Origin: Promethearchaeota archaeon
GTDB lineage: Archaea > Asgardarchaeota > Lokiarchaeia > Sigyniarchaeales > SOKP01
NCBI GenBank assembly: GCA_019057795.1
Contig: JAHLWS010000086.1
Coordinates: forward strand, 1 to 26,662
Reading direction: 5' to 3'
DNA: 26,662 bases
A program made the translations under genes and the position numbers. Under the pieces are notes generated by a model. That model saw nothing but the letters and a program-made list of their open reading frames with translations. It was not told where the DNA came from and ran no database searches. Numbering within the stretch: position 1 is the stretch's first letter; each line of letters begins with the position of its first letter. Shown here one piece after another: positions 5,326-26,591 of the stretch.

Positions 5326-5333
5326 GGGAATGG

Positions 5334-5376
5334 TCAACAAGAACCCCCCTTCTCTTTTCAGGGGGGTTCTTGTTGA
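5334..5376 (+). terminator. long hairpin between dctP and dctQ
   Basis: TCAACAAGAACCCCCC / GGGGGGTTCTTGTTGA perfect inverted repeat. Confidence 0.75.
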
Positions 5377-5412
5377 TAAGGTTTTTCAGCGGCCAAAGAA
5401 CTTCCGAATGAG

Positions 5413-5958: not shown

Positions 5959-5975
5959 GAGATGGAGGTGTTCTT

Positions 5976-7289
5976 ATCAATATAGTATTTATTTCAATTT
6001 TACTTTTTGGCAGCATGTTCCTTTTGTTGTTCTCAGGCCTTCCCGTTGCTTTTGTCCTGGGAGGTCTGGCTACTGTTTTTACCGCTATCTTCTGGGGTCC
6101 CGATTCTCTCTTTATCATTGTTGCCAGAACCTTTTCTATGATGTCCACCACGACTATGGTGGCCTGTCCCCTTTTCGTACTGATGGCAACTGCGTTGGAA
6201 CGTTCCGGTGTAGCGGAGGGCATGTACGAGACGATGTACCGCTGGTCGGGGGGTGTAAAGGGGGGATTGGCAGTTGGTACTGTCATAGCCTGTACACTGA
6301 TAGCCGCCATGTCAGGAATTGCTTCGACCGGTGTAGTGGTAATGGGTCTTATGGCCATTCCGGCAATGCTCAAGAGGGGATATGACAAGAGACTTGCGAC
6401 CGGATCTGTCCTTGCTGGAGGAGTTCTTGGTCCCCTTATCCCTCCCAGCATCACATTGGTGCTTTACGGAACTTTCGCTCGGGTATCCATAGGCGAACTT
6501 TTTGCCGGAGGAATGGCTGCCGGACTTCTCTGCTCTATTCTGATCATGGGCTACATATTGATCAGATGCTATTTGAATCCAAAATTAGGTCCACCTATTC
6601 CTGCGGAAGAGAGAGCTAACCAGAAGGCCAAAATTGCTTCCCTTAAGGGAATAATTCTCCCACTTGCCCTTATAATTGCTGTTCTGGGTTCGATCTTCAC
6701 AGGTATTGCCACCCCAACAGAGGCAGCTGCCGTAGGGGCTTTTGGCGCTTTTGTGTGTACCGCTATTCATAGACGGTTGAACTGGAAAATGATCAAAAGC
6801 GCAGCCTACACTACCATACAGGTGCAGGGTTTTATGATGTGGATCCTCTTTTCCGCCCAGGCATTTGCGTCCGTATACATGGGTCTGGGAGCCAAAAGGA
6901 TGGTCGTCAGCTTTTTAGAGACCCACGAGATAGGTTGGTGGACGATGCTTATAGCCATTCAGTTACTTTGGTTTCTGCTGGGTTTTGTGATCGATGCTTG
7001 GAGTATTCTTATGATAACCCTTCCCGTCCTTCTGCCTATATTTTCGATATATGGATTTGATCCTCTGTGGATGGGAGTCCTTTACGCGATCAATACACAG
7101 ACTGGTTACCTTACTCCGCCCTTTGGGACAATGCTTTTCATGATGAAGGGTATTGCTCCAAAGGAGATAACCATGACGGACATTTATCTTTCTGTCTGGC
7201 CCTTCGTGATGATCCAATTAGTTAGCCTGGCACTGTGTATAGCGTTCCCCAAACTGGTTACCTGGCTACCTTATCTTCTTTTCAGATAG
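5976..7289 (+). CDS. dctM: TRAP transporter large permease
   Basis: GLPVAF, GGVLGPLIPPS, TPTEAAAVG, GYLTPPFG motifs. Frame extends upstream of ATG 6015 to an ATC at 5976 after GGAGGTG. Confidence 0.92.
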   Translation: MNIVFISILLFGSMFLLLFSGLPVAFVLGGLATVFTAIFWGPDSLFIIVARTFSMMSTTTMVACPLFVLMATALERSGVAEGMYETMYRWSGGVKGGLAVGTVIACTLIAAMSGIASTGVVVMGLMAIPAMLKRGYDKRLATGSVLAGGVLGPLIPPSITLVLYGTFARVSIGELFAGGMAAGLLCSILIMGYILIRCYLNPKLGPPIPAEERANQKAKIASLKGIILPLALIIAVLGSIFTGIATPTEAAAVGAFGAFVCTAIHRRLNWKMIKSAAYTTIQVQGFMMWILFSAQAFASVYMGLGAKRMVVSFLETHEIGWWTMLIAIQLLWFLLGFVIDAWSILMITLPVLLPIFSIYGFDPLWMGVLYAINTQTGYLTPPFGTMLFMMKGIAPKEITMTDIYLSVWPFVMIQLVSLALCIAFPKLVTWLPYLLFR

Positions 7290-7352
7290 AAAAAGTGCAG
7301 TGCTTCCGGATCCTTTCTCTGCTGACGTGGAGAAAATTGGAAGCACTTTTTA

Positions 7353-7474
7353 TATTAAGCCGCATAAAACTCCAGACTCCTGTCTGGAGATGTAGCGGCA
7401 GCCCGAAGGGCTCAAGCTCGTTTTTCGCTTGTAGCCAAAAGATGCCCCCAGCTCCTGCTGGGGGAGTTTCACTA
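7353..7474 (+). mobile_element. non-autonomous IS200/IS605-type miniature element (PATE-like), copy 1
   Basis: 122 bp identical to 12013-12134; subterminal hairpins CTCCAGAC-TCCT-GTCTGGAG and CCCCAGC-TCCT-GCTGGGG; ends ...GTTTCAC. Confidence 0.8.
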
Positions 7475-7476
7475 GT

Positions 7477-7974
7477 TTGGGTACTTTTTCTAAGATATTA
7501 TGTCCCGGCTTACGACTGGCCTGGATATTATGCAACGAAGAAATAATAAGAAAGATTGCTATACTGAAACAGGCAACCGATTTATGTACCAGTATCTTAA
7601 ACCAGTTAATTGCTTCCGAGTATTGCAAATTAGGTAAATTAGAAGAAAACATCGAGTCTAATGTTCAAATTTATAAGAGAAAAAGAGATGTAATGTTAAA
7701 TGCTTTAGATAAATACTTTCCAAAAGAAGTTTCCTGGACTAAACCTCAAGGTGGGTTTTTTGTAGTTGCTACTTTACCTGATTACATGGATACCGGAGAA
7801 ATGTTCAAAGAGGCAATCAAAGAGAATGTAGCTTATGTGCCTGGTGCTCCATTTTATGCTGACGGAAAAGGCCAAAATACTATGCGGCTGTCTTTCTGTT
7901 ATCCGAGCGAGGGAGATATTGAAGAAGGCATTGAGAGAATAGGTAGTTTAATCAAGAAGAAAACAAAAAAATAA
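7477..7974 (+). pseudogene. PLP-dependent aminotransferase (class I/II, LysN-like), C-terminal part only
   Basis: Begins at LGTFSKILCPGLRLAW (PLP lysine); WTKPQGGFF and MRLSF motifs; N-terminal part replaced by the miniature element. Confidence 0.88.
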
Positions 7975-11842: not shown

Positions 11843-12012
11843 AGAATGAAATTGTTATTAGACAGCCATCGTTCAATTGGTAAGAAGAGTATTATAATAT
11901 ATGTAATATAAAATAGAAAGGAAGGATTAAAGAATGTCAGTGTCAACCTTTTTGGGGTAGTTTCTTTTGGTGAAAAAAATTATTCCGGTTTTGGGTAGAC
12001 CTACCCTTGTTT

Positions 12013-12134
12013 TATTAAGCCGCATAAAACTCCAGACTCCTGTCTGGAGATGTAGCGGCAGCCCGAAGGGCTCAAGCTCGTTTTTCGCTTGTAGCCAAAA
12101 GATGCCCCCAGCTCCTGCTGGGGGAGTTTCACTA
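12013..12134 (+). mobile_element. non-autonomous IS200/IS605-type miniature element, copy 2
   Basis: Identical direct repeat of 7353-7474. Confidence 0.8.
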
Positions 12135-12436
12135 CCACTTAATAAAGTTCGAATTATATATGGCTTATTTAAGTATAAAAAGTAAAATGCTTAGTGAGGA
12201 ATTGTACCTATCAAGGTTCAAGAGTATTTAATGTTCCAGAGGAGAAAAGAAGCGATGTGAATATTGCAGTTCATAAGGTAGCTTATTAACCTAAAGAAAA
12301 TTTAGAATTGGGTCCATAGATTGAGAGAGGGTTAAAAGGTGTAAAATAAATCAATAGTGTTTAAAATTAATATTTAGAGGTTTTATAAAATAAGCTAAAA
12401 ATTATTGTTATTTTCTCTCGATATTTCTTTTTTTAA

Positions 12437-12545
12437 TGTTATAATAATAAGTACAAAAGGGAGTGCGATTTGCCAAAATTACGCTCCCTTTTTATGGCTA
12501 TACCGAAAGATTTAACTTCCGTTTTCCTTTCGGTTTTTTATTTTA
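12437..12545 (+). promoter_or_regulatory. extended -10 promoter followed by two terminator-like hairpins (leader or small RNA upstream of rep gene)
   Basis: TGTTATAAT at 12437-12445; AAAAGGGAGTG...CGCTCCCTTTT (12455-12493); ACCGAAAG...CTTTCGGT plus T-run (12502-12545). Confidence 0.55.
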
Positions 12546-12685
12546 TTAGACTTAAATATATTCTCCGGAAATTATAAAAATACTGCAAAAATCAGTAAAT
12601 CATACTCATCTTAAAACTATTCAGGCCTGGAGGTGATATATAGCGGTTAAACCCTTAATTCATACCACGCCAAAAAAGGGTTTAA

Positions 12686-13735
12686 ATTATATTTAAAAGT
12701 ATAAATGAGTACATAAAATACGAGTATAGTCTAATACCAATTGATAGGGAAAAGAAACCTTATATATATTGGAAGTCCTACCAATATAAAAAAGCAAACA
12801 TAGAAGATATTTTTGGTTGGTATAATAAATTTCGTGATGTAAATATTGGAATAGTTACCGGGAATATAAGTAAGTTAGCGGTTATTGATGTTGACGATCC
12901 TAATCTCTTGCCGGAGTTAAAAGAATATTTACCGGAGATAAAAGAAACAACCAGGGTTAGAACGAGAAGGGGGTATCATTACTATTTCTCTCTCAGTGGC
13001 GAATACGTTAAAAGCACCAACAACTTATTCGGCAAAAGACTTGAATTAAAAAGTAATGGAACCTATGTTGTGGCTCCCCCATCGATAATAAAAGCCCATC
13101 GATATGTTTTTGAAATTCCTCTTAGTGAGATGCTTCCCATACCAAAATTATTAATCAAAAAAGAAAGGGAACTGGCTTTTTGTGTAGAGGATAGAGAGCA
13201 TAAAGTTTTTAAAATACCAAAATATCACGGTCAAAAAGTTGACTGCATACGCCAGATATTAAGTAGGGATTTAGAGGAAGGAGAGAGAAACAACAGCTTA
13301 TTTATTCTCTATAATCTCTTACTCCAAAATAAGAATACGGAAGAATATTCAAAAAAGTTAGTTATTAATAAAAACAAATCATTATCAAAACCCTTAACTG
13401 AATTGGATTTAAAAAAGTTCTGCCGGAAAGCTTATAAGTATGGGTGTAGTGGTATCAGAGATAAGCTTGCTTATATAAAATGTGAGGCTTGCGGGTATAG
13501 GTTTAAGGATGGTAAATTAAAAGATAGTAATATTTTGATTAAAAATATAAGAATTTTGCCGGAATTAAGTAATGCTCAACGCGGAGTAGCTTGTCTTTTG
13601 GGAACCGTTTTTGAGGGTGAATATCCTTCGATAAACAAGATAGCAGAAACAGCGAATATGAATTTTGGAACTGTTAAGCATGCAATTAAAATATTAAAAG
13701 AAATGCTGGTTATCGATGAGGCTTTGTATAACTAA
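12686..13735 (+). CDS. bifunctional DNA primase/polymerase (Prim-Pol, AEP superfamily) with PriCT-like domain, Cys cluster and C-terminal HTH
   Basis: Frame open from 12686: SLIPI..EKKPYIYW, NIGIVTG.ISKLAVIDVD, TRRGYHYYF, YVVAPPS, EGERNNSLF, C...CEAC and terminal HTH. The TTG start at 12908 would omit catalytic motif I. Confidence 0.88.
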   Translation: MIFKSINEYIKYEYSLIPIDREKKPYIYWKSYQYKKANIEDIFGWYNKFRDVNIGIVTGNISKLAVIDVDDPNLLPELKEYLPEIKETTRVRTRRGYHYYFSLSGEYVKSTNNLFGKRLELKSNGTYVVAPPSIIKAHRYVFEIPLSEMLPIPKLLIKKERELAFCVEDREHKVFKIPKYHGQKVDCIRQILSRDLEEGERNNSLFILYNLLLQNKNTEEYSKKLVINKNKSLSKPLTELDLKKFCRKAYKYGCSGIRDKLAYIKCEACGYRFKDGKLKDSNILIKNIRILPELSNAQRGVACLLGTVFEGEYPSINKIAETANMNFGTVKHAIKILKEMLVIDEALYN

Positions 13736-13744
13736 GATTATAAA

Positions 13745-13766
13745 ACCCCTTCAGTTTTTAAGGGGT
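13745..13766 (+). terminator. hairpin after Prim-Pol gene
   Basis: ACCCCTT...AAGGGGT. Confidence 0.45.
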
Positions 13767-14119
13767 GATTTCTATATTTTTCAAGGGTTTTAGCGTAAAA
13801 ATGCGGACTAATATACTAAGGTTTTAGGAATTTATCTCTTTCTTCTATTCTTTTATTTATTGTCTCATTTTTTATCTCTTGTCTTTATGGTATAAACGAA
13901 ATATCCAAAGAAGGATTTTAGAAAGTGATAGAAGCTTTAAAAAATTGAGGTCCCACTCTTTCTCTCTCCTTATAAATTATTACCAGGCCAGGACTCATGC
14001 TTAATTTAGATCTAATTTAATTCACTTTATCTAATCCTGATTTATCAATTCTGGCCACTCTGACTAATCTAATTTACCAGGTAAATTTAATCCACTCCGG
14101 CTATCCCTAATTTTACGAC

Positions 14120-16102
14120 TCAACCACGCGCGGGGCGGGTAGCTTTCCTTCCCCCTTAAATCCCCCCTAAAACCCCCCTCTTATCCCCCTTCTTTTTATT
14201 ATTGCTCCTTGCTTCAAGAGCTACGCCCGCGGGAACGCTCTCAAGCTTAAATGTAGGCTATGTCGCTCTGACGGTCCCGCTTATGCTCCGCTCTGTTCAG
14301 CACCGCAACAAAAAAAAGGTTAGGCTATGATTCATTAGGGGGGAAGCATTAAGGGGGAAGGAAAAACTACGGTCGATTCACCCCCTACTCTACAAGCATA
14401 AGCGCAGGTATTATCGAGACCCTCTCTCCCTTGCCCCGCCCCTGTTTGCGAACCTTTTCGTGCATCTGTCATCGTTTGTGATTTAGTCTTATCCCCTACA
14501 AAAAAGAGATAAAAAAAATAAATGAAAAAAACAAGAGCGGGGATTTTTTTATCTCCCTTTTTCGGTGGCTCTATTTATCGGATTCCATGCAGTTAAGCGA
14601 TAAGTAAAAACATCCAACTAATAAAAAGTTAAAAGAATTGCCTTTTATATATAAACTTTTTATTGTTGTATTTTTTACCTATCGCCAGGAGAAGAGGAGA
14701 GGCAATTCCCTCTCCTGGTAAACAGTAATTTACCAGGAGAAGAATTTGCCAGGAAAAAGCCAAAAGCAATAAGAATAATCACACTCAAAAAAAATAACTA
14801 TATTTTGAGAAAAAGAAAAATATAATTATTTTTTATTGTGTCATTAAAAATCACGAAGGTTAAATATTATGTGATAAGGGAAAATCACCCCCTATCACAT
14901 AATATTATTTTTTTAAAAAAGGGTTTCCGTCTAACTACCAGACAGAAGAACGGGTAATCCCAGGCAATAAGAGAAAAAAATTATTTAAGGTATATATTCT
15001 GGTTTTTTTCTCCTATTGCCTGAAACATTATTTATCGGATTCTTTGCGTTTACGCGATAAGTAAAAAAGACCTCAAAACAAAAAGAAAAACCCTTTTTGG
15101 TTTAAGATTTTTTTACCTATCGCGGGCCCTGTTAAGTGAGTATCTACTGAGCAGGGCAGGGAGAAGACGAACGCTTAAAAGATATATAAGAAGGGAAAAT
15201 CACCCCCTCTTATATATCTTTATTCTGATATAAAATGTGTAATGGTTAGCGAACAGTGGATTAGTCCTATCCCCGGAAAAACAAGATAAAAAGTAAATGA
15301 AGGAATAATTGCAGGAACTTTTTACCTTCATTTTCAGTGGCTAATGTTATCGGATTCTTAATGGTTGGCGATAAGTAAAAACATCCATAAATAAAATATT
15401 AAAAGACCTGTCTGCGTGCGGACACGCACAGGCAGAAGAGAAACATTTTATTTATGTAGTTTTCACCTATCGCCAGGGAAGGATCATCTTTTTTTCTTCT
15501 CTTTGCAATTTCTTCTCCTGGCGTTTGTAGAAGCCAGTGCCGCAAAAAATTCTCCTGCTTAAATTGTTTGCCTGCATTTTTTTGCGGTGCCTGAGTCTTC
15601 TATAAACGCCATCGGTGCCGCACATATAATCTCTTAGGATAGTTTTAGTTTTTTTTATCTGCTCTACCTGGAGTGTACACACGCAGGCAGATAAAAAATA
15701 TTTAAACGTAGAAGTATAGTGAACAGGAACAGGGAGGGAAGGTGGGGAAGCCATCCGATGACTAGAAATAGAGATTTTTCCCTACGATAAGAAGTATCTA
15801 ATTTAGCCCGCCTTTATATTTTTAACCAGGCTAAAAAAGCTTTTTGTTGGTTAAAAATATAATGCTTTTTTTGCTATACATAACAAAGCTTTATCGGATA
15901 AGATATGCATGAAATTATTTCTTGTAGAATGTCCGATAGAGTCTTGTTATGTATTGGCAGACTTTCAAATAAGCTTCTTAGCAAAAAAGCTCTTGGCGGG
16001 CGGTCGTGGGGGTGAGATGACCAGAAGTTATTTACCAAGAAGTCAATAAAAGCAGGTTAACAGATCATTTTAATAAAATACCGAGGGAGAGAGAAAAAGA
16101 GG
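14120..16102 (+). ncRNA. putative large structured non-coding RNA or folded ssDNA region with repeated hairpin modules
   Basis: No credible ORF; dense array of long inverted repeats; three TTATCGGATTC...GCGATAAGTAAAAA...ACCTATCGC modules; two GGGAAAATCACCCC-capped hairpins with different stems. Confidence 0.6.
15981..16102. repeat. cargo-slot left repeat L1
   Basis: About 122-bp imperfect direct repeat of 17152-17273 (TGGCGGGCGGTCGTGG...AGGTTAACAGATCATTT...GAGAGAAAAAGAGG). Confidence 0.9.
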
Positions 16103-16147
16103 CCATCTACAATCGATTTCAATAATTTTCCTAATGATTATTATATT

Positions 16148-16813
16148 CTAAGTGGGGTTACTATTTTTAAATCTCATACCGGATGCAATCATTAATTGCA
16201 ATGTTCTCGATAGATGAGTGTTTTCAACATAAGGAGTATCTTTTTTATTCATAATCTTTAAAATCTTAGCAATCATTTCATCTATTGTGATAACTTTAAG
16301 TTTTATATTTACTTTCTTTTCTTTGAAATAATTCTTAATATCTTTAGAATTCTCAAAATCGCTTTTATCCTTTAATGATCCTTTTGTTATTTTGGTACAT
16401 AATATTACATATTCTAGTTCTATTTCTTTAGTATCAACAACATTTAATTCTTTTCTTAATATTTTCAAGAATGAATTAGTCCATCTATGTATACAAAGTT
16501 CTCTGAATGCACACCAATCATCTTTTCTTCCAGTAGTTTTAGTAGGTTGGTTATTTAAAGCATTCTCCAATGTATTTTTGAATTTTGATATGTTAAAACC
16601 GCCCTGCCACGATTTGCAGCTAACAGTAATAATTTTATTTCTTTCATTAGTATCAATAGTTATTAAATCTATATCAGAATGTACAGAATCATATTTGGCT
16701 ATATATGTTGGTTCTTCTTTTGATGGTCTAAATTTAATATTATGTTTTGTAAAGCAACCAACTTTTTTAGAATAAAAATCTTCTGCAATTTGTTCTAATA
16801 TATCTTCTTTCAT
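16148..16813 (-). CDS. putative PD-(D/E)xK-fold nuclease (restriction-endonuclease-like cargo)
   Basis: MKEDILEQ...HSDIDL...VSCKSWQGG (E..D..SxK variant); ATG at 16813 after GAGGT RBS. Confidence 0.7.
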   Translation of the reverse strand: MKEDILEQIAEDFYSKKVGCFTKHNIKFRPSKEEPTYIAKYDSVHSDIDLITIDTNERNKIITVSCKSWQGGFNISKFKNTLENALNNQPTKTTGRKDDWCAFRELCIHRWTNSFLKILRKELNVVDTKEIELEYVILCTKITKGSLKDKSDFENSKDIKNYFKEKKVNIKLKVITIDEMIAKILKIMNKKDTPYVENTHLSRTLQLMIASGMRFKNSNPT

Positions 16814-16897
16814 TATTACCTCACTTGAAATAATCGAACTACTTCGTTTATGCACGACTCTAGGTGAAATTTCGAAAATTAACCACCAATATTCCTT

Positions 16898-16960
16898 GTG
16901 GCGTATTTTTGTAGATTCTTAGCTTATCATAAACCTATTTTTATAATTCTACAAATAATA
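16898..16960 (-). promoter_or_regulatory. cargo-slot right repeat R1 containing a sigma70 promoter
   Basis: Repeat of 18124-18186; minus strand TTGTAG-N17-TATGAT. Confidence 0.75.
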
Positions 16961-17011
16961 GGGCTGTGATCATAAAATTATAACCGTATAAATCGGTAAA
17001 AATCGGTTAAC

Positions 17012-17090
17012 AAAAAGGGGAATGCTATAAAAATAACATTCCCCGAAAAGATATAAAGAAAAGGAATGCACTACTAAACCTTTTCCCTGC
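17012..17090 (-). ncRNA. putative small RNA of about 80 nt
   Basis: Minus-strand TTGATG-N17-TATATT with extended TG (17125-17097) and intrinsic terminator GGGGAATG...CATTCCCC-TTTTT (17044-17012); no convincing ORF. Confidence 0.5.
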
Positions 17091-17151
17091 ATATCAAATA
17101 TATCACGGGTTTAAGAAAACATCAAACGTTAATTACAATATTCCACGCCTG

Positions 17152-17273
17152 GCAAAAAATGCTCCTGGCGGGCGGTCGTGGTAGAAGCAGATGAGCATAA
17201 GTTTTTACCAGGAAGGCAATCAAAGTAGGTTAACAGATCATTTAATAAAATACTGGGGGGAGAGAAAAAGAGG
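17152..17273. repeat. cargo-slot left repeat L2
   Basis: Imperfect direct repeat of 15981-16102. Confidence 0.9.
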
Positions 17274-17390
17274 TTTCGAAAATAAGGATATCCCCCCAAC
17301 TCTCAAAATAATCATGCCTATAAATAATAATGAGGTTAGTCTGTATGGGCTTCTTCAATTTTTGTATATTTTTTCAAAAGGAATACCTCT

Positions 17391-18029
17391 TCAGTCTTCC
17401 TGCACCCACTTAAGGCTTTCCACGCTTTTCTGGGTGTTATTATAAAGAAGTTCCAATTCGTTACCTTGGGGATACAATTGAGTATCTCGAATTTGAACGC
17501 TAAAAAATGTATCAGTACTCATGGGACCAGAAGGGGAATAGCTGACAAAGCTTACCTGCGTTCTATTATCCTTTTTCCAAGTAAAAACCCGTCCCCCCGG
17601 GTAATCTTGTTGGATTCGTCCGTTGAGATAAAGTTTTTCCAGCGAGACAAGAAATGCCCTCAGCACCGACTTCTCTGACGAATAGTGTTCAAGATTAAAA
17701 GGTCGATCTAAATTGATCACACATTCAACAGCAGTACCATTTATAAAATTGATAGACACAAAAGAAGACGCTTGGTAGTCATGGAGCTCAAAATTGCAAT
17801 TGAAAGAGACCTTATTAGTGAATGGTTTCAGAACCTTAAGAAACTCAGGAGGAATTGCCTGGTTAGATTTCATATCGTCTCTGAAAGCACGAATGTCTTC
17901 AGCAGTAAATAACTCTGCGCCAAAGTCTTTACATTTCTCCAAAACTTGGGCAGTCGATTTCTGCATCAGTTCGCACGCAAAAGGTATATGAAAGAAGTTG
18001 GTTCCTTTTCTATCTATAGATTTATTCAT
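17391..18029 (-). CDS. hypothetical protein (cargo)
   Basis: 212-aa ORF, AGGAG RBS, promoter in repeat R2. Confidence 0.75.
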   Translation of the reverse strand: MNKSIDRKGTNFFHIPFACELMQKSTAQVLEKCKDFGAELFTAEDIRAFRDDMKSNQAIPPEFLKVLKPFTNKVSFNCNFELHDYQASSFVSINFINGTAVECVINLDRPFNLEHYSSEKSVLRAFLVSLEKLYLNGRIQQDYPGGRVFTWKKDNRTQVSFVSYSPSGPMSTDTFFSVQIRDTQLYPQGNELELLYNNTQKSVESLKWVQED

Positions 18030-18123
18030 TTGCTTATTAACTCCTATTTCTGATTATATTTTTTTATTTTTAAGCATAAAATTACCAAATAAAATGGCTT
18101 ATAACTTAAAATAATCTAACTAC

Positions 18124-18186
18124 GTGGTATGTTTTTATAAATTCTTAGATTATCATAAACTAATTATATTAATTCTGCAAATAATA
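18124..18186 (-). promoter_or_regulatory. cargo-slot right repeat R2 containing a sigma70 promoter
   Basis: Repeat of 16898-16960; minus strand TTGCAG-N17-TATGAT. Confidence 0.75.
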
Positions 18187-18337
18187 TTTTTATATTAGTT
18201 AGAACTATTTTTGGCGGGGAAGGGGCCGCTTGTATCGAGGGGGCTCCTTTTTTAGTTTTATAAAATAAGGAGTATTTATAAGGAAATCAAAGGAATAGGA
18301 AGCTTTATACATTATAAAGGGCGATAATGTTCTAATA

Positions 18338-18366
18338 TTGACTATTATATTAAAATATGATAATAT
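18338..18366 (+). promoter_or_regulatory. sigma70 promoter of the DUF1659-DUF2922-lysis operon
   Basis: TTGACT-N17-TAATAT with extended TG. Confidence 0.6.
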
Positions 18367-18449
18367 GAACATATATAACATTTAGCTTTGCTTGATTTAA
18401 AACCCGTCCTCGACCTGATCGGGGATTCTAAAAAAGGAGGTGAAAAATA

Positions 18450-18677
18450 ATGGCAATAGTAGTAACCGTTCCTCGTGATTCATCCTTACAGTTTAGACTG
18501 GTAGTAGGTAGTAATCCGGAAACCGGAGCACCTATCATCAACAGCAAGACCTTTACTAAGATCAAATCAGCTGCTTTAGACCAAGACGTCTATGATACAG
18601 CTAATGCTTTAGTAGGTCTGCAGAAGTACCCTTTAGATGAAATCAGACTTGAAAGAGAATCCCAACTTACTGAATAA
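18450..18677 (+). CDS. DUF1659-family protein
   Basis: SSLQFRLVVG...G.PIINSKTFTKIKSAALDQDVYDTANALVGLQKYPL matches my recollection of the family; AAGGAGGTGA RBS. Confidence 0.8.
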   Translation: MAIVVTVPRDSSLQFRLVVGSNPETGAPIINSKTFTKIKSAALDQDVYDTANALVGLQKYPLDEIRLERESQLTE

Positions 18678-18724
18678 TCACTAATAATTGTAAAACCATA
18701 AACAAAAAAGGAGGTGAAAAATAA

Positions 18725-19000
18725 ATGGCAACCGAATTAGGAGAAGTAACCAGTTATAAAAGACTCTATATGCAGTTTAGGGATAGTGCTGCAAAAACTA
18801 TCAACATCACTTTGAATAATCCTAAAAATTTGGAGGATGGCGATTACGTCGACTTTGCGGCACAAGATGCAGCTATTGAAGGAGTTATGGATACTATAAT
18901 CGCCAAGAATATCTTCCATAATAATGGTAATGACTTAGTGGCTAAGGTCAATGCTCGGATACTTGATTACAAGTCTACTGATGTTATGGATGTTGGCTAG
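18725..19000 (+). CDS. DUF2922-family protein
   Basis: KRLYMQFRD...KTINITLNNPK...IEGVMDTIIAKNIF...LVAKVNARI; AAGGAGGTGA RBS. Confidence 0.8.
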   Translation: MATELGEVTSYKRLYMQFRDSAAKTINITLNNPKNLEDGDYVDFAAQDAAIEGVMDTIIAKNIFHNNGNDLVAKVNARILDYKSTDVMDVG

Positions 19001-19140
19001 TCGTTAGTGAATAGTGAATAGTCGTTAGCCGGAAAAGCGAGAAAGCAAAGAAGTGGGCTAATAGCTAGGAAATAAATTAATATAATATTCTTCCTTGGAG
19101 GGCTCCGCGGACCTTCCCGGGGAGAGAGAAGGAGTAATAC

Positions 19141-19503
19141 ATGTTAGAAGTATTTGTCACTAAATATTTATTAGATTTCGCTCTTGTTTTTCTTGTTGGT
19201 TTGGCCTCTAAATTTATTATCAATAAGTTTGGCCAGGACAGGGCAGACAAAATAAAAGAGGCTATTCTGGCAGCTATGCTTTGGGCAGAAGAAGAGTTGG
19301 GAATAGGGAATGGTGAGGAAAAATGGAAAATTGCCTGGGTCAAATTAATTGAAATATTAAGGAAACAGAAAGTTAGCTTAAAAGAGGGCGAGATTTCCTA
19401 TGTAAAGGATCTTATGAAAGCTACTGTTCCGGAGGTGAACGAAATTATCTATAAGGCTATGCCGGATGTAGTAAGGAACGGTAGGACTTTAAAGTATAAA
19501 TAA
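19141..19503 (+). CDS. phage holin, LL-H-like
   Basis: Single N-terminal TM then A..WAEE...G.G.EK motif; directly upstream of endolysin. Confidence 0.7.
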   Translation: MLEVFVTKYLLDFALVFLVGLASKFIINKFGQDRADKIKEAILAAMLWAEEELGIGNGEEKWKIAWVKLIEILRKQKVSLKEGEISYVKDLMKATVPEVNEIIYKAMPDVVRNGRTLKYK

Positions 19504-19506
19504 ATT

Positions 19507-19884
19507 ATGGATATGATTAATGACATAGAATTAACTGAATATTTTTCTTTATATGAGTTTGATTGCCCCTGCTGCAGGCGGGTTATGTTGTCTCCGGACC
19601 TTTTGGCCAGACTGAATCATTTAAGAAGGGTTATAAATAGGCCGGTATATGTAAATTCCGGTTACCGGTGCAAAGAAGAAAATCATAAGGTCGGGGGAGC
19701 TCCCGGTTCTTATCATCTCCTGGGTATGGCGGTAGATATTCACGCAGGCGATTTTTTACTTTATGATCTTCTCACTTTTGCTCATGAAATGGGATTTAAT
19801 GGTATTGGATATTACGAAAAGAAAAATTTCTTACATCTCGATATTAGGCCTGGACCAAAGCACACTTGGAAAGGAAATAAGTGA
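19507..19884 (+). CDS. peptidase M15A (Zn D-Ala-D-Ala peptidase fold) endolysin
   Basis: FSLYEFDCPC, VNSGYRC..N..VGGA..SYHLLGMAVD, GIGYY...FLHLDIR motifs. Confidence 0.9.
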   Translation: MDMINDIELTEYFSLYEFDCPCCRRVMLSPDLLARLNHLRRVINRPVYVNSGYRCKEENHKVGGAPGSYHLLGMAVDIHAGDFLLYDLLTFAHEMGFNGIGYYEKKNFLHLDIRPGPKHTWKGNK

Positions 19885-19885
19885 A

Positions 19886-20089
19886 TTGGATATTGAATAT
19901 GTACTAAAATTAATAGCAAATAACGGCTTTCCCCTGGTGCTTTCTGTATATTTAGTATGGAAATTAGATTTTTTTATTGCTGAAATAATTAAAAATCAAA
20001 AGGAATTTTCCCATAATGTTACTGCTGAAATCAAAGAAATTAAGGGGGCAATCAATGAATTACGGGTTGATTTTGCTAAAAATCAATAA
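19886..20089 (+). CDS. YvrJ-family small membrane protein (holin-like)
   Basis: IANNGFPLVLSVYLVWKLD plus coiled coil; TTG start at 19886 after AAGGA. Confidence 0.75.
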   Translation: MDIEYVLKLIANNGFPLVLSVYLVWKLDFFIAEIIKNQKEFSHNVTAEIKEIKGAINELRVDFAKNQ

Positions 20090-20389
20090 GCATGTCCTCG
20101 TGAAAACGGGGAACCATTGAAATATAAGGTTTTTGGCGTTTTTGAAAAAAGCTTCTAATTTGGCGTATACGAGGCGTATTTATCCGAACTTAATGAATCA
20201 TACCAGCCACCTTAAAATAAGCGCTAAAAACACGCTTAAATTAGATATTGTTTTTCGTGGTTCCTGGAAATCACTGCTTTTAGCCTTCTTTTCTCTTATA
20301 TACTCTCTATTACTACTATATTCTCCTATTCTCTTCTATATTTACCATATTAACAAAGAAATCCTTAGGATTTAAGGGCTTATATTTAA

Positions 20390-20553
20390 CTACACATTAT
20401 TTAGAACACTAACAGGAAGATTAATTAACTCCTTTAGTTTATAGGTGTTTCGTAATTCTGCTATAATTTCACCCCAGCATAAAGTTCCAAATGTTTCCAA
20501 TAGTGGAAGCCAGACAATAACCAGCTCTTTGGCAATCAAGCCAAAGGACTTTT
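20390..20553. repeat. att-like scar A: antisense recombinase-like tail, tRNA 3'-end-like GGAAGCCA, terminator
   Basis: Minus strand WLPLLETFGTLCWGEIIAELRNTYKLKELINLPVSVLNNV*; homologous to 24508-24630; hairpin CTTTGGC/GCCAAAG. Confidence 0.75.
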
Positions 20554-20740
20554 ATAGTTTTTTATATTTTTTTATAGAAAAGAAGGATTTTTAAAACTTT
20601 TGTCGTAATGTCTAGTTAGAAGTAATTTGATTTTATTATTTTATAATAATTAAAAAATAAGTTTCTTTTAAGTAATTAGTTATGTCAAATGTTGAAACCC
20701 GATTCGCATTACTTGGAACAGCAGGAGGTAGAAAAAGAAA

Positions 20741-21985
20741 GTGGCAAGAACACCCCTTCAAAAGCTTTGTGTTGAATTACAGCGGTTGAAAGGTATGTAT
20801 TTTACTGCAAGATTTTCGTTTGAAGAAACTGGTAAATTGGTTAAAAGCCAGATACACAAAAGTGAAATTAATCCAAAAGATCCTATACACATAAAAATAG
20901 ATGATAAAAATTATATTATAGCGCAAGATGGATATACTTTTTTACGACAAACTAAATGGCAATTTCCAAGATATCTTCGGGAAACCATCTTAGTACGTCT
21001 TATTTCCGCTCTGGAAGTATTTTTGATAGAAGTTGCCCGTGAACTTTTTTTACATAGGAGAGATATATTTTTTTCTGATCGACAAATAATATTTCCTCAA
21101 CGTGAGATTTTATCTATGAATTCTATCACCGAAATTTGGTCAAAAGTACTTAAGTTTGAACTTCGCAAACTTCAAAATCAGGGATTCAAAGAGTTTGTTA
21201 AATTTTATGATCGGAGATTAGGAATCGATGTTGGTCGTTCACCAGTGAGCATCAAATTAATTCAAGAGATGCACGACCGTAGACATCTTTTAATTCATCG
21301 ACTTGGTAATACCGACGAAAAGTATAGACGCGATTATAGCGAAAGAAAAAAGCGTATTAGTGTACCAGAAAATTATCTTTTAAATTCCATTTCTTCAATC
21401 AATGATTTTGCAGAATTTCTTTGGAAACAGTCACTAAATGTATTACAAGGAGTTCAAATTAAAAAGGAATGTGAAGACTTGCGTATAGAGGAAATTGTTA
21501 TTGAAATATTATCAGAAGGAGATTCAACATTAATTAATCCAAGTTACCATTTTTACGTAGAGGATTATATTATCTCTCTATCGGATATTCTTGAATCCAA
21601 GGATGTGGAAACTGAAAAATCTACAATTAAACTTAAAATATCAGGTCCGTCGCCATTTATCAAGGAATATATGAAGCGTATCAAGAATGCTGCAAAGATA
21701 GGTGAATTAATTCTTCATAGTAGACGAGCAATTAAATTTCCTCAAAAAAAAGTTCGATGTCGTTTAGAGGATTCAGAAATTGAGTCAATTGCACGTAAAT
21801 TACCACCGCAACCATGGCAAAAAGGAATACATAAGGAAATTGCGGCAATTAAAGGTATAAGTAATCGTCAGGCTAATGCAGCAATTTCAAAAATTCTCGA
21901 TGATCCGAAATTAAAATCACTAATAAGTAAAAAATATGTGCCTAACAACAATATTCACTTAGACAAGCAGGGTGGTGGCATTTAG
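20741..21985 (+). CDS. HEPN-domain protein with C-terminal HTH (candidate defence RNase)
   Basis: ISALEVFL...RRHLLIH (RxxxxH) HEPN motifs; LPPQPWQKGIHKEIA HTH tail; GGAGGT RBS and GTG start. Confidence 0.7.
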   Translation: MARTPLQKLCVELQRLKGMYFTARFSFEETGKLVKSQIHKSEINPKDPIHIKIDDKNYIIAQDGYTFLRQTKWQFPRYLRETILVRLISALEVFLIEVARELFLHRRDIFFSDRQIIFPQREILSMNSITEIWSKVLKFELRKLQNQGFKEFVKFYDRRLGIDVGRSPVSIKLIQEMHDRRHLLIHRLGNTDEKYRRDYSERKKRISVPENYLLNSISSINDFAEFLWKQSLNVLQGVQIKKECEDLRIEEIVIEILSEGDSTLINPSYHFYVEDYIISLSDILESKDVETEKSTIKLKISGPSPFIKEYMKRIKNAAKIGELILHSRRAIKFPQKKVRCRLEDSEIESIARKLPPQPWQKGIHKEIAAIKGISNRQANAAISKILDDPKLKSLISKKYVPNNNIHLDKQGGGI

Positions 21986-22294
21986 AAGCTTTAACATTTT
22001 ACTCAAAGGATCGTAGGGCTACTCCTTCCGGATTCTGAGTTCGTATATAACAGAAGATACAGGCAATTTCAAGTCCTTTGTTTTACGAAGGGCTTTTTAA
22101 TAAAAAAAGGATTTTTAAAAGATTTGTCGTATAATAAATGTAGAAATTATATTAATGCAACGAAGCACTTCACAAAACATAGTAATTTAGGAGCATAAAC
22201 AAGGTAGCTCGGCTAGTACAATACTGTATTTAAAAAGGAAGAATTGATTTTGTGAAAACTTGCTACGAAATGAGAAAAGCTCAAGGAGAATAAA

Positions 22295-24190
22295 ATGGAC
22301 GAAAAAGAATGGTTTAAAAAAGGTGTTGACCTTGCAAAACTCAAAAGATATGAAGAGGCAATAAAGGCTTTTGAGAAAGCCATCGAGTTAAATCCACAGA
22401 ATGATAAAGCTTGGTTTAAAAAAGGTTTTAACCTTGGTGAGCTCAAAAGATATGAAGAGGCACTAAAGGCTTTTGAGAAAGCCATCGAGTTAAATCCACA
22501 GAATGATCCAGCTTGGTATAATAAAGGTTTTAACCTTGGTGAACTCAAAAGATATGAAGAGGCACTAAAGGCCTACAAGAAAGCCATCGAGTTAAATCCA
22601 CAGAATGATGGAGCCTGGTATAATAAAGGTTTTAACCTTGGTAAACTCAAAAGATATGAAGAGGCAATAAAGGCTTTTGAGAAAGCCATCGAGTTAAATC
22701 CACAGAATGATGGTGCTTGGAATAATAAAGGTTTTTGCCTTAGTGAGCTCAAAAGATATGAAGAGGCAATAAAGGCTTTTGAGAAAGCCATCGAGTTAAA
22801 TCCACAGAATGATGGTGCTTGGAATAATAAAGGTTATTATCTTAGTGAACTCAAAAGATACGAAGAGGCAATGAAGGCCTATGAGAGAGCCATTGAAATA
22901 AACCCGAAGAATGATAAAGCCTGGGTAAATAAAGGTGTCTACCTTACTCAGAGCAAAAGATACGAAGAGGCAATGAAGGCCTATGAGAGAGCTATTGAAA
23001 TAAATCCGAAGAATGATAGAGCTTGGCATAATATAGGTTTCTGCCTTGGTGAACTCAAAAGACATGAAGAGGCAATAAAGGCTTTTGAGAAAGCCATTGA
23101 GTTAAATCCACAGAATGATAGCGCCTGGTATAATAAAGGTTATTATCTTGGTGAACTCAAAAGATACGAAGATATGATAAATGCCTATGATAAAGCCATT
23201 GTAATAGACCCTATGAATGATAAAGCCTGGGTAAATAAAGGTGTCTACCTTGCTAAACACAAAAGATATAAAGAGGCAATAAAAGCTTATGAGAAAGCCA
23301 TTGTAATAAATCCAGAGGAAGCTTTAGTATACAGCAACTTAGGAGAACTTTACTTAGATCTTGGAAATCTTGAAGATGCTTCTACAAGAACTAAAGAGGC
23401 ACTTAAGAGAAATGAGAATCTTGCTTTTACATTAAGCCTACAAGGGAGAATCAATATTGAAGAAAAAAAATATGACGCTGCAAGTAAGTTCTTTAAAAGA
23501 GCGATTTCTTTGGATATAGGTAATCCAAAACATTTCCTTTGGGAGGCTTATGCAAACTATCTAAAGGCAAAATTTTCTTTCGGCTCAAAAAGTGAAAAGT
23601 ACCAAGAAGAGCTGATAGGAATCATAAGAAACCTGGAAAGGGCAGATTCAATAAGTAAAAAACATGGAGAGGAAATGAGGCCTTATATCCTATATTTTTT
23701 AGGCTGTTTCTATCTTAAGAGTGAGGATATTTTTACAGCAAAGGAAAAATTTGAAGAGTGTATCAAATTAGAATCAAAATCTCCAATAGAAACCTCTGCC
23801 CGTGAAAAGCTCAGAAATATATGGAACTATAAAATTAAACCACCCTGGTTGCACTGGTGGTTAAATTCACCTTTTTGTCTCTGGCCTAAGAGGATTGGAT
23901 TTATTATTCTTGCAATGTTTATTCTTGTTATTTTTGCATCGTTATCGCTTCACCCATTTATTCCTGGGTGGTTTCCTTCTCTACAAGTAAACTGGACCTT
24001 ATATGGATTTCTTATTACAATTTTGATTATTATACTCATTTCACCGAGCATAGAACATATAAAGGTAAGAGATGTTGAAGTAGTAATGTGTTCACCTCCC
24101 CCCTTCGGACCCGTTCTATCTCCTATGGTAATGGAAGAAAAAATAAAAGAGATAGAAAAAAAATATCCGGAGTTGGAATCACTAAGCTGA
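22295..24190 (+). CDS. TPR-repeat protein with two C-terminal TM helices
   Basis: Tandem 34-aa repeats AWxNKGxxLxELKRYEEAIKAFEKAIELNP; AAGGAG RBS. Confidence 0.92.
   Translation: MDEKEWFKKGVDLAKLKRYEEAIKAFEKAIELNPQNDKAWFKKGFNLGELKRYEEALKAFEKAIELNPQNDPAWYNKGFNLGELKRYEEALKAYKKAIELNPQNDGAWYNKGFNLGKLKRYEEAIKAFEKAIELNPQNDGAWNNKGFCLSELKRYEEAIKAFEKAIELNPQNDGAWNNKGYYLSELKRYEEAMKAYERAIEINPKNDKAWVNKGVYLTQSKRYEEAMKAYERAIEINPKNDRAWHNIGFCLGELKRHEEAIKAFEKAIELNPQNDSAWYNKGYYLGELKRYEDMINAYDKAIVIDPMNDKAWVNKGVYLAKHKRYKEAIKAYEKAIVINPEEALVYSNLGELYLDLGNLEDASTRTKEALKRNENLAFTLSLQGRINIEEKKYDAASKFFKRAISLDIGNPKHFLWEAYANYLKAKFSFGSKSEKYQEELIGIIRNLERADSISKKHGEEMRPYILYFLGCFYLKSEDIFTAKEKFEECIKLESKSPIETSAREKLRNIWNYKIKPPWLHWWLNSPFCLWPKRIGFIILAMFILVIFASLSLHPFIPGWFPSLQVNWTLYGFLITILIIILISPSIEHIKVRDVEVVMCSPPPFGPVLSPMVMEEKIKEIEKKYPELESLS
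22304..23330 (+). repeat. 102-bp intragenic tandem repeats (TPR units)
   Basis: About ten units, near-identical at DNA level (GAGAAAGCCATCGAGTTAAATCCACAGAATGAT). Confidence 0.9.
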
Positions 24191-24507: not shown

Positions 24508-24673
24508 TCAAATAGGATTCATAGTGCTTGCCGGAATGCTAATTAACTCCTTTAGTTTATTGATATTCTGCAATTCCTCTAAAATCTCACCCCAACAAAA
24601 AGTTCTAAACGTGTCCAATAGGGGGAGCCAGACAATTCCATAGGCAGAACTTCTTTATCGGAGGTTCTGTCTA
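24508..24673. repeat. att-like scar B plus hairpin
   Basis: Minus strand WLPLLDTFRTFCWGEILEELQNINKLKELISIPASTMNPI*; plus strand GGGGGAGCCA-GACAAT; hairpin TAGGCAGAACTTC/GAGGTTCTGTCTA. Confidence 0.8.
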
Positions 24674-24681
24674 TTTAATTT

Positions 24682-24875
24682 CTAACAGATGCCAATTACT
24701 TCTTCCAACTTTTGATACACATTTTCAGTTTCATTATTCATACAAAAGTTGCGAAACTCGTCCTGTCTGAGGAGCCTGACATTTCCAGCCCTTTGGCATT
24801 TTGCTGAAGGGCTTTTTTGTTTTTTATAAATTATTTTTCAGAAAAAGAAGGATTTAGGGAAAATTTGTTGTAGAT
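24682..24875. repeat. att-like scar C plus terminator and promoter
   Basis: Minus strand RLLRQDEFRNFCMNNETENVYQKLEEVIGIC*; plus strand TCCTGTCTGAGGAGCC; homologous to 26397-26591. Confidence 0.8.
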
Positions 24876-26240: not shown

Positions 26241-26390
26241 TTAAGTAGTCAAGTAAATTCCTATATGCCCAGCACTGACTCTTTTCATCTTAAGACTTAT
26301 CTTATCCCATAAAAGCACGCTTTCAGACATCAACCTGGGGAGACAAGATAATCAAAAGGCAGGACTTCTTAATTAAAGTTTCTGCTTTTT
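26241..26390. repeat. att-like scar D (degenerate) plus hairpin
   Basis: CCTGGGGAGACAAGATAATC then GGCAGGACTT...AAGTTTCTGCTT hairpin like scar B; minus strand CLPRLMSESVLLWDKISLKMKRVSAGHIGIYLTT*. Confidence 0.55.
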
Positions 26391-26396
26391 TAATTC

Positions 26397-26591
26397 TTAA
26401 CAAATGCTAATTAATTCTTCTAACTTCCGATATACTTTTTCCGTTTCATCCCTCATACAAAAGTTGCGAAAATCGTCCTGTCTGGGGAGCTCGTCAATTT
26501 CCAGCCCTTTGGCCTTTGCTAAAGGGCTTTTTCATTTTTTTTAAATTATTTTTATAAAAATGAAGGATTTTTAAAAGTTATGTCGTATACT
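26397..26591. repeat. att-like scar E plus terminator and promoter
   Basis: Minus strand ELPRQDDFRNFCMRDETEKVYRKLEELISIC*; plus strand TCCTGTCTGGGGAGC; AGCCCTTTGGC/GCTAAAGGGCT-T run; AGGA-N14-GTCGTA. Confidence 0.8.

Follow-up and report, generated by a model that had tools for sequence, protein, structure and literature searches.

Anatomy of the locus

We analysed a 26,662-base stretch of DNA (hereafter the window), which is the entire contig C86 (JAHLWS010000086.1) of assembly G000, a metagenome-assembled genome (MAG) of 87 contigs and 4.95 Mb that bears the name of an Asgard archaeon. Comparison with the DNA of relatives delineates within it a conserved unit spanning approximately 12345 to 20440. 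This unit is made up of a Prim-Pol replicase gene, a structured non-coding tract of about 2.2 kb, two cargo genes on the opposite strand and a five-gene operon, which codes for a DUF1659 protein, a DUF2922 protein, a holin-like protein, an M15 zinc peptidase and a YvrJ-like protein. The features of the unit are as follows (L-numbers denote related loci):

12345-12565, plus strand: block L, the left edge of the unit, 82-88% identical in L041, L042, L044, L066, L104 and L105
12418-12445, plus strand: promoter in block L with an extended -10 element, TCGATA-16-TGTTATAAT (TGTTATAAT at 12437-12445), the top promoter-like site in a promoter scan
about 12452-12545, plus strand: block L leader of about 95 nucleotides (nt) with two hairpins and a T-run after the second, conserved between copies
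12686-13738, plus strand: Prim-Pol replicase, matching positions 3-146 of the 158 of the Pfam Prim-Pol profile (E 1.1e-21)
13942-14640, plus strand: block A of the tract, 79-83% identical in eight or more copies
14122-14450, plus strand: GC-rich nested-helix domain of about 330 nt in block A, from the consensus fold
14640-15160, plus strand: block B, variable, built of hairpin modules that recur about every 315-457 nt (repeat families D6-D8, D11 and D13)
15161-16125, plus strand: block C, 10 copies, 78-90% identity
15400-15437, strand not assigned: small palindromic REP-like insertion, absent from 9 other aligned copies
15521-15611 and 15644-15712, plus strand: further block C hairpins, from the consensus fold
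15746-16010, plus strand: near-invariant core of block C, two hairpins inside a helix formed by GCCCGCC (15807) and GGCGGGC (15996)
about 15868-15962, plus strand: long hairpin of the core, with invariant stems and a hypervariable loop
16148-16855, minus strand: cargo gene 1 (235 amino acids, no family), framed by the terminator-side repeat T1 (15975-16160) and the promoter-side repeat P1 (16820-16960)
17391-18029, minus strand: cargo gene 2 (212 amino acids, no family), framed by T2 (17152-17273) and P2 (18124-18195)
18338-18449, plus strand: operon promoter, TTGACT-17-TG-TAATAT in a promoter scan, and a leader of about 80 nt with a hairpin before the Shine-Dalgarno box
18450-18677, plus strand: DUF1659 protein, 75 amino acids, soluble (Pfam 69.8 bits, cut-off 24.1)
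18725-19000, plus strand: DUF2922 protein, 91 amino acids, soluble (Pfam 59.9 bits, cut-off 25.5)
19141-19503, plus strand: holin-like protein, 120 amino acids, one N-terminal transmembrane segment at about residues 9-27 (phrog_6918 holin, 2.9e-7)
19507-19884, plus strand: M15 zinc peptidase, 125 amino acids (Peptidase_M15_3, 2.8e-19; phrog_894 endolysin, 2.9e-29)
19886-20089, plus strand: YvrJ-like protein, 67 amino acids, one transmembrane segment and a C-terminal helical tail, with a TTG start two bases past the M15 stop
20090-20440, plus strand: conserved downstream segment, the right edge of the unit, 75-90% identical over about 200-330 nt in 14 other copies and unrelated thereafter

A first-pass annotation of the same DNA had described these genes as a compact virus-like element without a capsid, and at the level of genes its description largely holds. 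The Prim-Pol is present, with its start corrected: the open reading frame (ORF) listed from 12908 is the 3' part only, and the frame is open from 12686, from where the whole domain is matched. The hairpin-rich, ORF-free tract, which had been put at about 2.4 kb (there is no ORF longer than 95 amino acids at 13736-16147), proves to be functional and is conserved in relatives. The two cargo slots are likewise real, with contents that vary between copies, as are the near-identical strong initiation regions of the DUF1659 and DUF2922 genes (18430-18454 and 18704-18728). The holin, M15 endolysin and YvrJ genes were all located, although the Pfam scores of the first and the last lie below the cut-offs (Holin_LLH, 20.7 bits against 24.9; YvrJ, 18.1 bits against 29.5). 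Pfam and PHROG searches of all ORFs in the window also agree with that annotation in finding no terminase, portal, capsid, tail or integrase.

The contig is bacterial

Because both its composition and its homology are those of Atribacterota, we regard C86 as bacterial and mis-binned; it is almost certainly a JS1-type Atribacterota contig that was placed in the MAG of an Asgard archaeon, and the archaeal host implied by the name of the assembly is not borne out. The assembly itself has an archaeal 16S rRNA gene (SSU_rRNA_archaea, 1457.9 bits, on contig C53) and an estimated contamination of 7.5%. The tetranucleotide usage of C86 correlates at 0.964 with the mean of the assembly, where 20-kb control pieces reach at least 0.987, versus 0.989 with Atribacterota flanks. 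It is the least typical of the assembly contigs of at least 20 kb, and each of its segments is nearer to Atribacterota than to the archaeal mean. A comparison with 41 genomes of the archaeal genus yielded no shared counterpart for the DUF1659 gene, the M15 peptidase gene, the 6.3 kb at 12150-18440 or the left flank, and the flanking M20 peptidase has partial matches of 24-37% identity in these genomes as against full-length matches of 44-45% in Atribacterota genomes. At the DNA level the operon and the tract are 80-91% identical to Atribacterota contigs, including those of the single-cell genome SCGC AAA255-G05. Close relatives in species-representative genomes are overwhelmingly Atribacterota, among them five contigs from this same single cell, for which no binning was involved. 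The homologues of the DUF1659 protein number 843; the 120 matches listed are 81-97% identical and come from sediment metagenomes, with the named ones being mostly Atribacterota. There is no second copy of the unit in G000, in which only the repeats at the right end of the window match two tiny contigs.

The notion that the contig is genuinely Asgard, being a large fragment acquired from Atribacterota in which the peptidase cassette could serve as an antibacterial weapon, appears most improbable. The contig sits in the bin of an archaeal genome close to it in G+C content, the two organisms share a habitat (related sequences come from sediment and cold-seep samples), and archaea have acquired bacterial wall hydrolases. 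Nevertheless, similarity to the 41 genus relatives is absent throughout the contig, also in its flanks, and the composition of all its segments, the restriction of its right-end repeats to two tiny G000 contigs and the contamination estimate of the MAG all speak against this proposal. Moreover, the cassette is also found on short contigs in MAGs of Asgard, Actinomycetota, Thermotogota, Aerophobetes and other phyla, a scatter that looks like the pattern expected from mis-binning. Bacterial genes claimed for such MAGs need checking. Within G000, the contigs C12, C2, C6, C7 and C72 are further compositional outliers that lie nearer to Atribacterota (for C12, 0.967 versus 0.989), and they are likely to be additional contamination of the MAG.

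A recurrent unit with separable modules

With tblastn and blastn against fetched loci, we recovered the operon with all five genes from about 30 Atribacterota loci, at amino-acid identities of 80-97%; two genomes have five copies each. DUF1659 is present in 45 of the 81 sampled Atribacterota genomes and the tract core in 13 of them, and a pattern search for the long hairpin of the core retrieved at least 120 metagenome contigs; the earlier proposal of a recurring unit is thus sustained. To the left of block L the DNA is unrelated between copies. Terminator-like hairpins are frequent across the region, with 13 observed over 12200-20800 versus 6.0 +/- 2.4 expected.

Among metagenome loci anchored on the hairpin, a co-oriented operon lies 1.2-9.5 kb away in 20 of the 30 with at least 4.5 kb of downstream flank, whereas Prim-Pol occurs in just 4 of the 20 with at least 3.5 kb of upstream flank. 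Thus, of the linkage between DUF1659/DUF2922 loci, a replication gene, a long non-coding tract and lysis genes for which the first-pass annotation had suggested a synteny survey, the lysis genes are indeed linked and the tract is found in half of the informative loci, whereas the replicase is usually missing. The tract's steadiest partner is the operon and not the replicase. When loci are anchored instead on DUF1659 and have at least 6 kb of upstream sequence (n = 16), the tract precedes the operon in 8, a split sigma factor in 7, neither in 1 and both in none. Conversely, L104 (contig C35 of the single-cell genome G054) has Prim-Pol and the tract and lacks the operon. Since the operon is found without the tract, and the tract with Prim-Pol without the operon, the modules are separable. 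In L104, a HEPN/nucleotidyltransferase toxin-antitoxin-like pair is seen inside the tract (approximately 5856-6816 of G054:C35), and fragments of an IS3-type transposase lie behind it.

In about 20 contexts the flanks of the relatives contain sugar transporters, glycosidases, PPDK, IclR with KDPG aldolase, BREX and restriction genes, and large Ig-domain proteins; phage structural genes or a recombinase were found in none of these 10-kb flanks. The copies have diverged at a number of synonymous substitutions per site (dS) of 0.3-1.0, and those from the same genome are not grouped in a (poorly resolved) tree, which marks them as old paralogues. Two of the single-cell-genome copies share host genes in their left flanks (a GRAM-like gene and an HD-GYP gene), in what looks like a segmental duplication. 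Our literature search turned up no paper that links Atribacteria with YvrJ and none that describes the island.

A conserved, strand-specifically structured tract

The conserved parts of the tract, blocks A and C, are, together with block L, 78-91% identical at the DNA level in many operon loci. In the 10 aligned copies, block C shows no 3-base periodicity (variable columns 163/157/151), its indels are mostly of 1-2 nt, and its identity of 0.83-0.90 stands against 0.71-0.85 at the 4-fold degenerate sites of the operon in the same pairs of copies. We therefore rejected a decaying pseudogene as an explanation of the tract, given the lack of codon periodicity and a conservation above that of synonymous sites. 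The consensus folds of three tract segments have energies of -72, -42 and -85 kcal/mol. The last of these is that of block A, with 90 pairs, 5 of them showing compensatory changes, and with 96% of the predicted pairs canonical in 25 copies aligned with a hidden Markov model (HMM). The plus strand folds better by about 13-14 kcal/mol (-72 versus -59 and -42 versus -27). A test of the predicted pairs on 84-118 distinct copies, aligned with a sequence-only HMM and controlled by sliding the partner, found them canonical in 95-97% of cells versus 41-61% with the slid partner. Compensatory pairs include 15542:15585 (GC 62, AU 12), 15827:15849 (CG 95, AU 15) and 15660:15689 (UA 51, CG 16); for the core segment, the count of such pairs taken alone is not clearly above the slid controls, and the overall support from covariation is moderate. 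The tract is a selected, functional, non-coding element that is structured on the plus strand.

Rfam 15 has no covariance-model match to the window at the gathering score, and yields only chance-level rows at E<=1 over 11900-18500. Being uncatalogued there and abundant in metagenomes, the tract points to a candidate large structured element. It resembles OLE, GOLLD, ROOL, HEARO and raiA in being long, conserved, strand-specifically folded, confined to one lineage, abundant in metagenomes and placed beside lysis-type genes. It differs from them in having no Rfam match, in being modular with a variable middle, and in that it may act as DNA. GOLLD and ROOL, for their part, are often associated with phages.

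The variable middle, block B, is found at full length only in L048 (91% identity) and otherwise in partial matches; one contig assembled from a DNA run joins 14462 to 15256, with block B absent. The REP-like insertion in block C has matches of about 30 nt scattered across the genomes G054 and G055. Contigs of metatranscriptome X20 and of two runs that are labelled RNA-Seq and probably consist of DNA span the greater part of the stretch, 14940-15547 and the operon among it, with the qualification that contig depth in these runs says nothing on transcription, strand or ends. Pairing of a tract RNA with the operon leader was considered and dropped, as the values obtained (-38.7 and -45.7) do not improve on those of shuffled sequences (-42.4 +/- 4.5).

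An old DUF1659-DUF2922 operon linked to split sigma factors

The first two genes of the operon code for soluble proteins, with no signal peptide in either. The ratios of nonsynonymous to synonymous substitution (dN/dS, calculated here and below with the rows for L042 left out) are 0.20-0.35 for DUF1659 and 0.04-0.07 for DUF2922. Their AlphaFold models (predicted local distance difference test, pLDDT, of 75 and 90, respectively) display similar small beta-beta-alpha-beta folds. Multimer prediction, as the first-pass annotation had proposed, supports binding: the DUF1659-DUF2922 complex scores 0.83, and the best of three controls 0.01. The mark used for this score was reached by 58 of 80 solved complexes and by 2 of 110 mismatched pairs, counts that hold roughly here as our own alignments were used. 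The runs agree in at least 96% of contacts with a partner pLDDT of at least 85, and the predicted interface brings together an invariant QDVYD helix of DUF1659 and a VMDxIIxKNIF helix of DUF2922. These models suggest that the two proteins probably form a heterodimer.

Structural searches with both models against the PDB (Foldseek), and with DUF2922 against BFVD (Foldseek) and in the wide VIA-align search, gave no row at E<=0.001 or Z>=5, an absence that is no proof. The best, weak row in the wide VIA-align search was the histone-like DNA-binding protein p6 of phi29 (Z 4.4, root-mean-square deviation 3.5 over 67 residues), with BFVD rows of the same kind. An ESM Atlas search with DUF2922 recovered its own family only, and sequence searches of the PDB gave nothing below E 0.06.

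The sole functional data that we found in the literature for the two families come from Staphylococcus aureus, in which SroA (DUF1659) and SroB (DUF2922) are induced about 1000-fold by the extracytoplasmic function (ECF) sigma factor SigS and have opposing effects on sigS mRNA (bioRxiv 10.1101/2022.10.19.512975). In Bacillus subtilis, yvrJ is a target of the two-subunit sigma factor SigO-RsoA (PMC8103513). A comparable arrangement is seen in L030, L097, L098 and the Caldisericota locus L080, where separate Sigma70_r2 and Sigma70_r4 genes stand directly upstream of the operon, with some of the sigma-linked loci also having an HTH_36 protein and a helicase fused to Trans_reg_C. The operon is seen as DUF1659-DUF2922-YvrJ in Clostridia and Romboutsia. 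The pair is, in all, a cellular operon of ancient standing with ties to a split sigma factor.

The unit in the window thus shares with the SigO-RsoA regulon and SroAB its DUF1659 and DUF2922 proteins, which are of the SroA and SroB families, a YvrJ-like last gene, and relatives with a split sigma factor upstream. It departs from them in having no sigma-factor gene next to the operon, a different promoter, and holin-like and M15 genes between DUF2922 and YvrJ. The promoter of the window copy is near-consensus for sigma-70 and is conserved in the tract-linked copies. We discarded the possibility of one sigma-linked master copy driving all others, as the tract-linked copies have this sigma-70-type promoter and the sigma-linked ones a different upstream region. 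In the sigma-linked L097, L098, L030, L060, L062 and L043, a palindrome, CAATTAAC-N6-GTTAATTG or its GTCAAT variants, lies within the 60 nt before DUF1659, immediately ahead of the ribosome site, and these upstream regions also carry repeated ATTACTTATCAC boxes; the palindrome and the boxes are likely an operator and a sigma-specific promoter. Separately, a protein of 4244 amino acids (P0140) combines a TrbL/VirB6 conjugation domain with 12 stretches weakly similar to DUF2922 (E 5e-5, 26% identity), and hence a transfer apparatus may be another place where the DUF2922 fold serves, there as a repeat.

The holin-like, M15 and YvrJ-like genes

The three downstream genes are all under purifying selection, with dN/dS of 0.04-0.12 for the holin-like gene, 0.18-0.22 for the M15 peptidase and 0.11-0.15 for the YvrJ-like gene. 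The M15 peptidase retains its zinc-binding motifs (H70-x6-D77, that is HxxxxxxD, and H110) and has no signal peptide or hydrophobic leader; an exact-sequence look-up of this protein returned no record. The YvrJ-like protein has 83-95% identity to its counterparts in related operons and is similar, both in sequence and in its place in the operon, to the third gene of the DUF1659-DUF2922 operons in L073, L078 and L081. In the Caldisericales locus L081 the three genes DUF1659-DUF2922-YvrJ are followed by an unrelated amidase, which thereby constitutes an independent link of the operon to wall hydrolysis.

The arrangement resembles a phage lysis cassette in its gene order, its phrog_6918 holin and phrog_894 endolysin, and a signal-less hydrolase in need of a membrane lesion. 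It differs from one in that no phage genes lie within 10 kb in about 20 contexts, and in that the copies are old and under purifying selection. The reading that fits best is a cellular holin/endopeptidase cassette that was added to an older DUF1659-DUF2922-YvrJ operon under sigma control.

Prim-Pol, the left edge and the cargo slots

The Prim-Pol frame is open for about 345-350 codons in five copies, evolves at a dN/dS of 0.12-0.24, indicative of purifying selection, and contains DxD and GYHYYF motifs that we read from the sequence. Its C-terminal part, judged by eye and with no family match, looks PriCT-like with a helix-turn-helix. There is no ATG, GTG or TTG start at 12686, and the same holds for L042; translation likely starts at an ATT or ATA that follows an AAGGG box. 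Distant matches (22-34% identity) are to plasmid Prim-Pol genes, including those of small Sulfolobus/Saccharolobus and Thermococcus plasmids. In all five copies with an intact frame the gene lies directly before the tract, and in L041 and L044 it is cleanly absent, such that block L, which these copies keep, abuts block A. A hairpin covers the likely Prim-Pol ribosome site, in a manner that may be analogous to the control of plasmid rep genes. An antisense promoter at 12599-12571, in the style of plasmid copy control, was set aside, for it is not conserved in other copies.

Neither cargo gene has a known family; for cargo gene 1, searches of Pfam, PHROG and PADLOC gave no match. An 82% identical protein occupies the same slot in L041, as does an 85% identical relative of cargo gene 2 in L045. 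The framing repeats of cargo gene 1 belong to the families D9, D10 and D19. In other copies the slots hold a PDC-S45-like protease, an HNH nuclease, methyltransferases, a flavodoxin or orphans between the same framing repeats, and contigs from DNA runs join across slot 2. The cargo amounts to one or two accessory genes that are self-contained and can be exchanged, and that in other copies are often of a defence-like kind. In a comparison with integron-like cassette arrays, the frames of the cargo genes are repeated promoter and terminator blocks in place of one junction site, and no recombinase is seen in the window or the surveyed relatives. A C-rich box after the cargo genes was tried as an Asgard cassette-junction repeat and rejected, the motif TGGCGGGCGGTCGTGG occurring only on C86 within G000.

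A possible wall-opening cassette outside phages

We tentatively favour, at somewhat short of an even chance for the proposal as a whole, the view that the unit is a modular island from the chromosome of JS1-type Atribacterota, present here in one copy, in which the operon is a cellular, non-phage holin/endopeptidase cassette accompanied by a structured non-coding tract. Under this proposal, the holin-like and YvrJ-like proteins would let the M15 peptidase reach the wall, which would then be opened locally, resulting in the release of cytoplasmic material or in a controlled lysis akin to type 10 secretion. The DUF heterodimer would be the regulator or the cargo of the cassette. The tract, taking the place of the split SigO/RsoA-like sigma module, would be the partner of the operon, most likely as an expressed structured RNA locus; we read it as the functional partner because it fills the position that the sigma factor holds in the other half of the loci.

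A close parallel is found in type 10 secretion and other non-phage holin/endopeptidase cassettes (Serratia ChiW/ChiX; Clostridioides difficile TcdE/TcdL with the sigma factor TcdR; PMC9527704, PMC6200909). As in those systems, a holin-like protein and a signal-less M15-type peptidase occur outside a prophage, small signal-less proteins adjoin the cassette, and half of the relatives stand behind a dedicated sigma factor. DUF1659 and DUF2922, being soluble and signal-less, could be the secreted cargo. In contrast to those systems, the window has no recognised cargo such as a chitinase or toxin and no spanin; it has an extra YvrJ-like protein, a multi-copy organisation, a sigma-70-type promoter and a large structured partner.

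Several points weigh against this interpretation. The identities of the holin-like and YvrJ-like proteins depend on sub-threshold family scores, and a strong, constitutive-looking promoter before a holin and a wall hydrolase calls for a control step. As regards the tract as an RNA locus, a terminator lies about 95 nt after the left-edge promoter, and invariant stems with iteron-like repeats are just as compatible with a site on DNA, for instance an origin. Furthermore, Prim-Pol always lies directly before the tract and is under purifying selection, for which a replicon would be a better fit than a regulatory RNA locus. While we favour the RNA locus, a DNA element of the origin type that goes with Prim-Pol is a serious rival. 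Finally, there is the remote alternative that the archaeon received all 26.7 kb by horizontal transfer.

The broader form of the origin-like alternative is an integrated plasmid- or satellite-like element, replicated by Prim-Pol, with the tract as its origin and copy control in the form of folded single-stranded DNA or a primer RNA. Copies without Prim-Pol would then be non-autonomous and served in trans, and the cargo and the lysis-like operon would be passengers that aid spread by lysis or vesicles, possibly with a helper phage. We consider this unlikely, though it deserves serious attention. Besides the intact, selected Prim-Pol and its kinship with those of small archaeal and bacterial plasmids, it would account for the conserved promoter, the terminated leader and the hairpin over the likely ribosome site, for the orientation-specific folding of the tract, for a multi-copy unit with differing flanks, and for variable, partly defence-like cargo of the kind typical of satellites and islands. 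The unit also resembles pRN1-type Prim-Pol plasmids and the pri-rep-ori of phage-inducible islands, in which Prim-Pol is followed by a repeat- and hairpin-rich non-coding region and the cargo varies; unlike these, it has no helicase domain, integrase or packaging gene, and its 2.2-kb tract is far longer and usually without a replicase. The rarity of Prim-Pol at tract loci (4/20) relative to the operon (20/30) counts against such an element, as do the absence of any helicase, recombinase, relaxase or packaging family from the scans of the window and relatives and of terminal repeats or target duplications at the unit edges. The copies, moreover, are old and not grouped by genome, with two that look segmentally duplicated. 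The circular excised form for which the first-pass annotation had suggested a search was not found, there being no circular contig or terminal overlap among about 200 loci as judged from assembled contigs. The contig joints seen in the runs suit copies without block B or a cargo slot, with no circle-type junction established. Searches of IMG/VR with DUF1659, Prim-Pol and two motifs of the GC-rich module, of INPHARED with DUF2922 and of PLSDB with the GC-rich module gave no match. The att-like scar at the right end was not recognised as tRNA-like; ARAGORN found no tRNA there and Rfam nothing at E<=1.

The first-pass annotation had itself favoured a new class of virus or satellite, with DUF1659 and DUF2922 as the coat or nucleoprotein around a folded nucleic acid of the tract, and with the holin and M15 peptidase as the means of its release. 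We found no positive evidence for such a class, which we judge very improbable. To be sure, the tract and the operon are co-oriented and linked in 20/30 loci, the two small proteins have very strong ribosome sites and are predicted to bind each other, the pair is the most constrained in the unit (foremost DUF2922), and the highest, if weak, structural rows are those of phi29 p6. The structural searches matched no coat-like fold, which in itself proves nothing. Against this class, DUF1659-DUF2922(-YvrJ) is an old cellular operon, found in Firmicutes, Caldisericota and over half of the sampled Atribacterota genomes, where in most cases it has no tract, Prim-Pol or holin beside it. In Atribacterota, half of the copies stand behind a split sigma factor and not the tract, the S. 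aureus homologues are reported to be regulators of sigS mRNA, the tract and Prim-Pol occur without the operon, and a mobility signature is lacking, with no sign of excision or of particles. As regards the larger tailed prophage with deleted structural genes for which the same annotation had allowed, no phage structural, packaging or integration family was found in the window or in the 10-kb flanks of the relatives, in about 20 contexts. A related proposal, that the tract is a very large structured RNA or a folded single-stranded replicon, bound by the modelled DUF heterodimer and released by the cassette, would amount, if true, to a protein-poor, capsid-less, domesticated or selfish form of nucleic-acid release in a dominant subsurface phylum; we think this improbable.

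The favoured reading, a wall-opening cassette of the cell itself, would be of consequence for the biology of Atribacterota (JS1), a phylum that ranks with the most abundant bacteria in marine subsurface sediment and has hardly been brought into culture. A multi-copy, phage-lysis-like operon outside a phage is a candidate route for the release of material or for cell death, which would matter for how carbon is turned over and DNA exchanged in the deep biosphere. That sigma factor and tract alternate also gives a testable context to the DUF1659, DUF2922 and YvrJ families, which are widespread in Firmicutes and have been the subject of one functional preprint.

Other features of the window

The M20 peptidase block to the left of the unit lies between two 129-nt direct repeats (7346-7474 and 12006-12134), which share 98% identity over a distance of 4.66 kb. 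A truncated aminotransferase gene (7477-7974, C-terminal part only) starts right after the first repeat, and a 39-nt piece matches L061. Further left, at 3900-7400, the TRAP transporter genes DctP, DctQ and DctM have a G+C content of 45-50% versus about 33% around them and a tetranucleotide correlation of 0.56-0.66 with either reference; foreign DNA was probably inserted here recently.

Repeats of 60-250 nt that form one family lie between the genes to the right of the unit, at 20415-20518, 24533-24872 and 26337-26587. Members of this family are also found on the G000 contigs C72 and C25, in two other archaeal-genus MAGs (on small contigs) and, at other Atribacterota loci, beside the operon. 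On the plus strand, four instances of the motif AGGA-N14-GTYGTA stand before downstream genes (20584-20607, 22108-22131, 24849-24872 and 26564-26587; 0.04 expected). The motif is also present at the equivalent site in L028 and L044, and looks like an alternative-sigma promoter. One of the genes in this part of the window codes for a TPR protein of 631 amino acids, with ten 102-nt tandem units of 62-92% identity (22208-23425 span).

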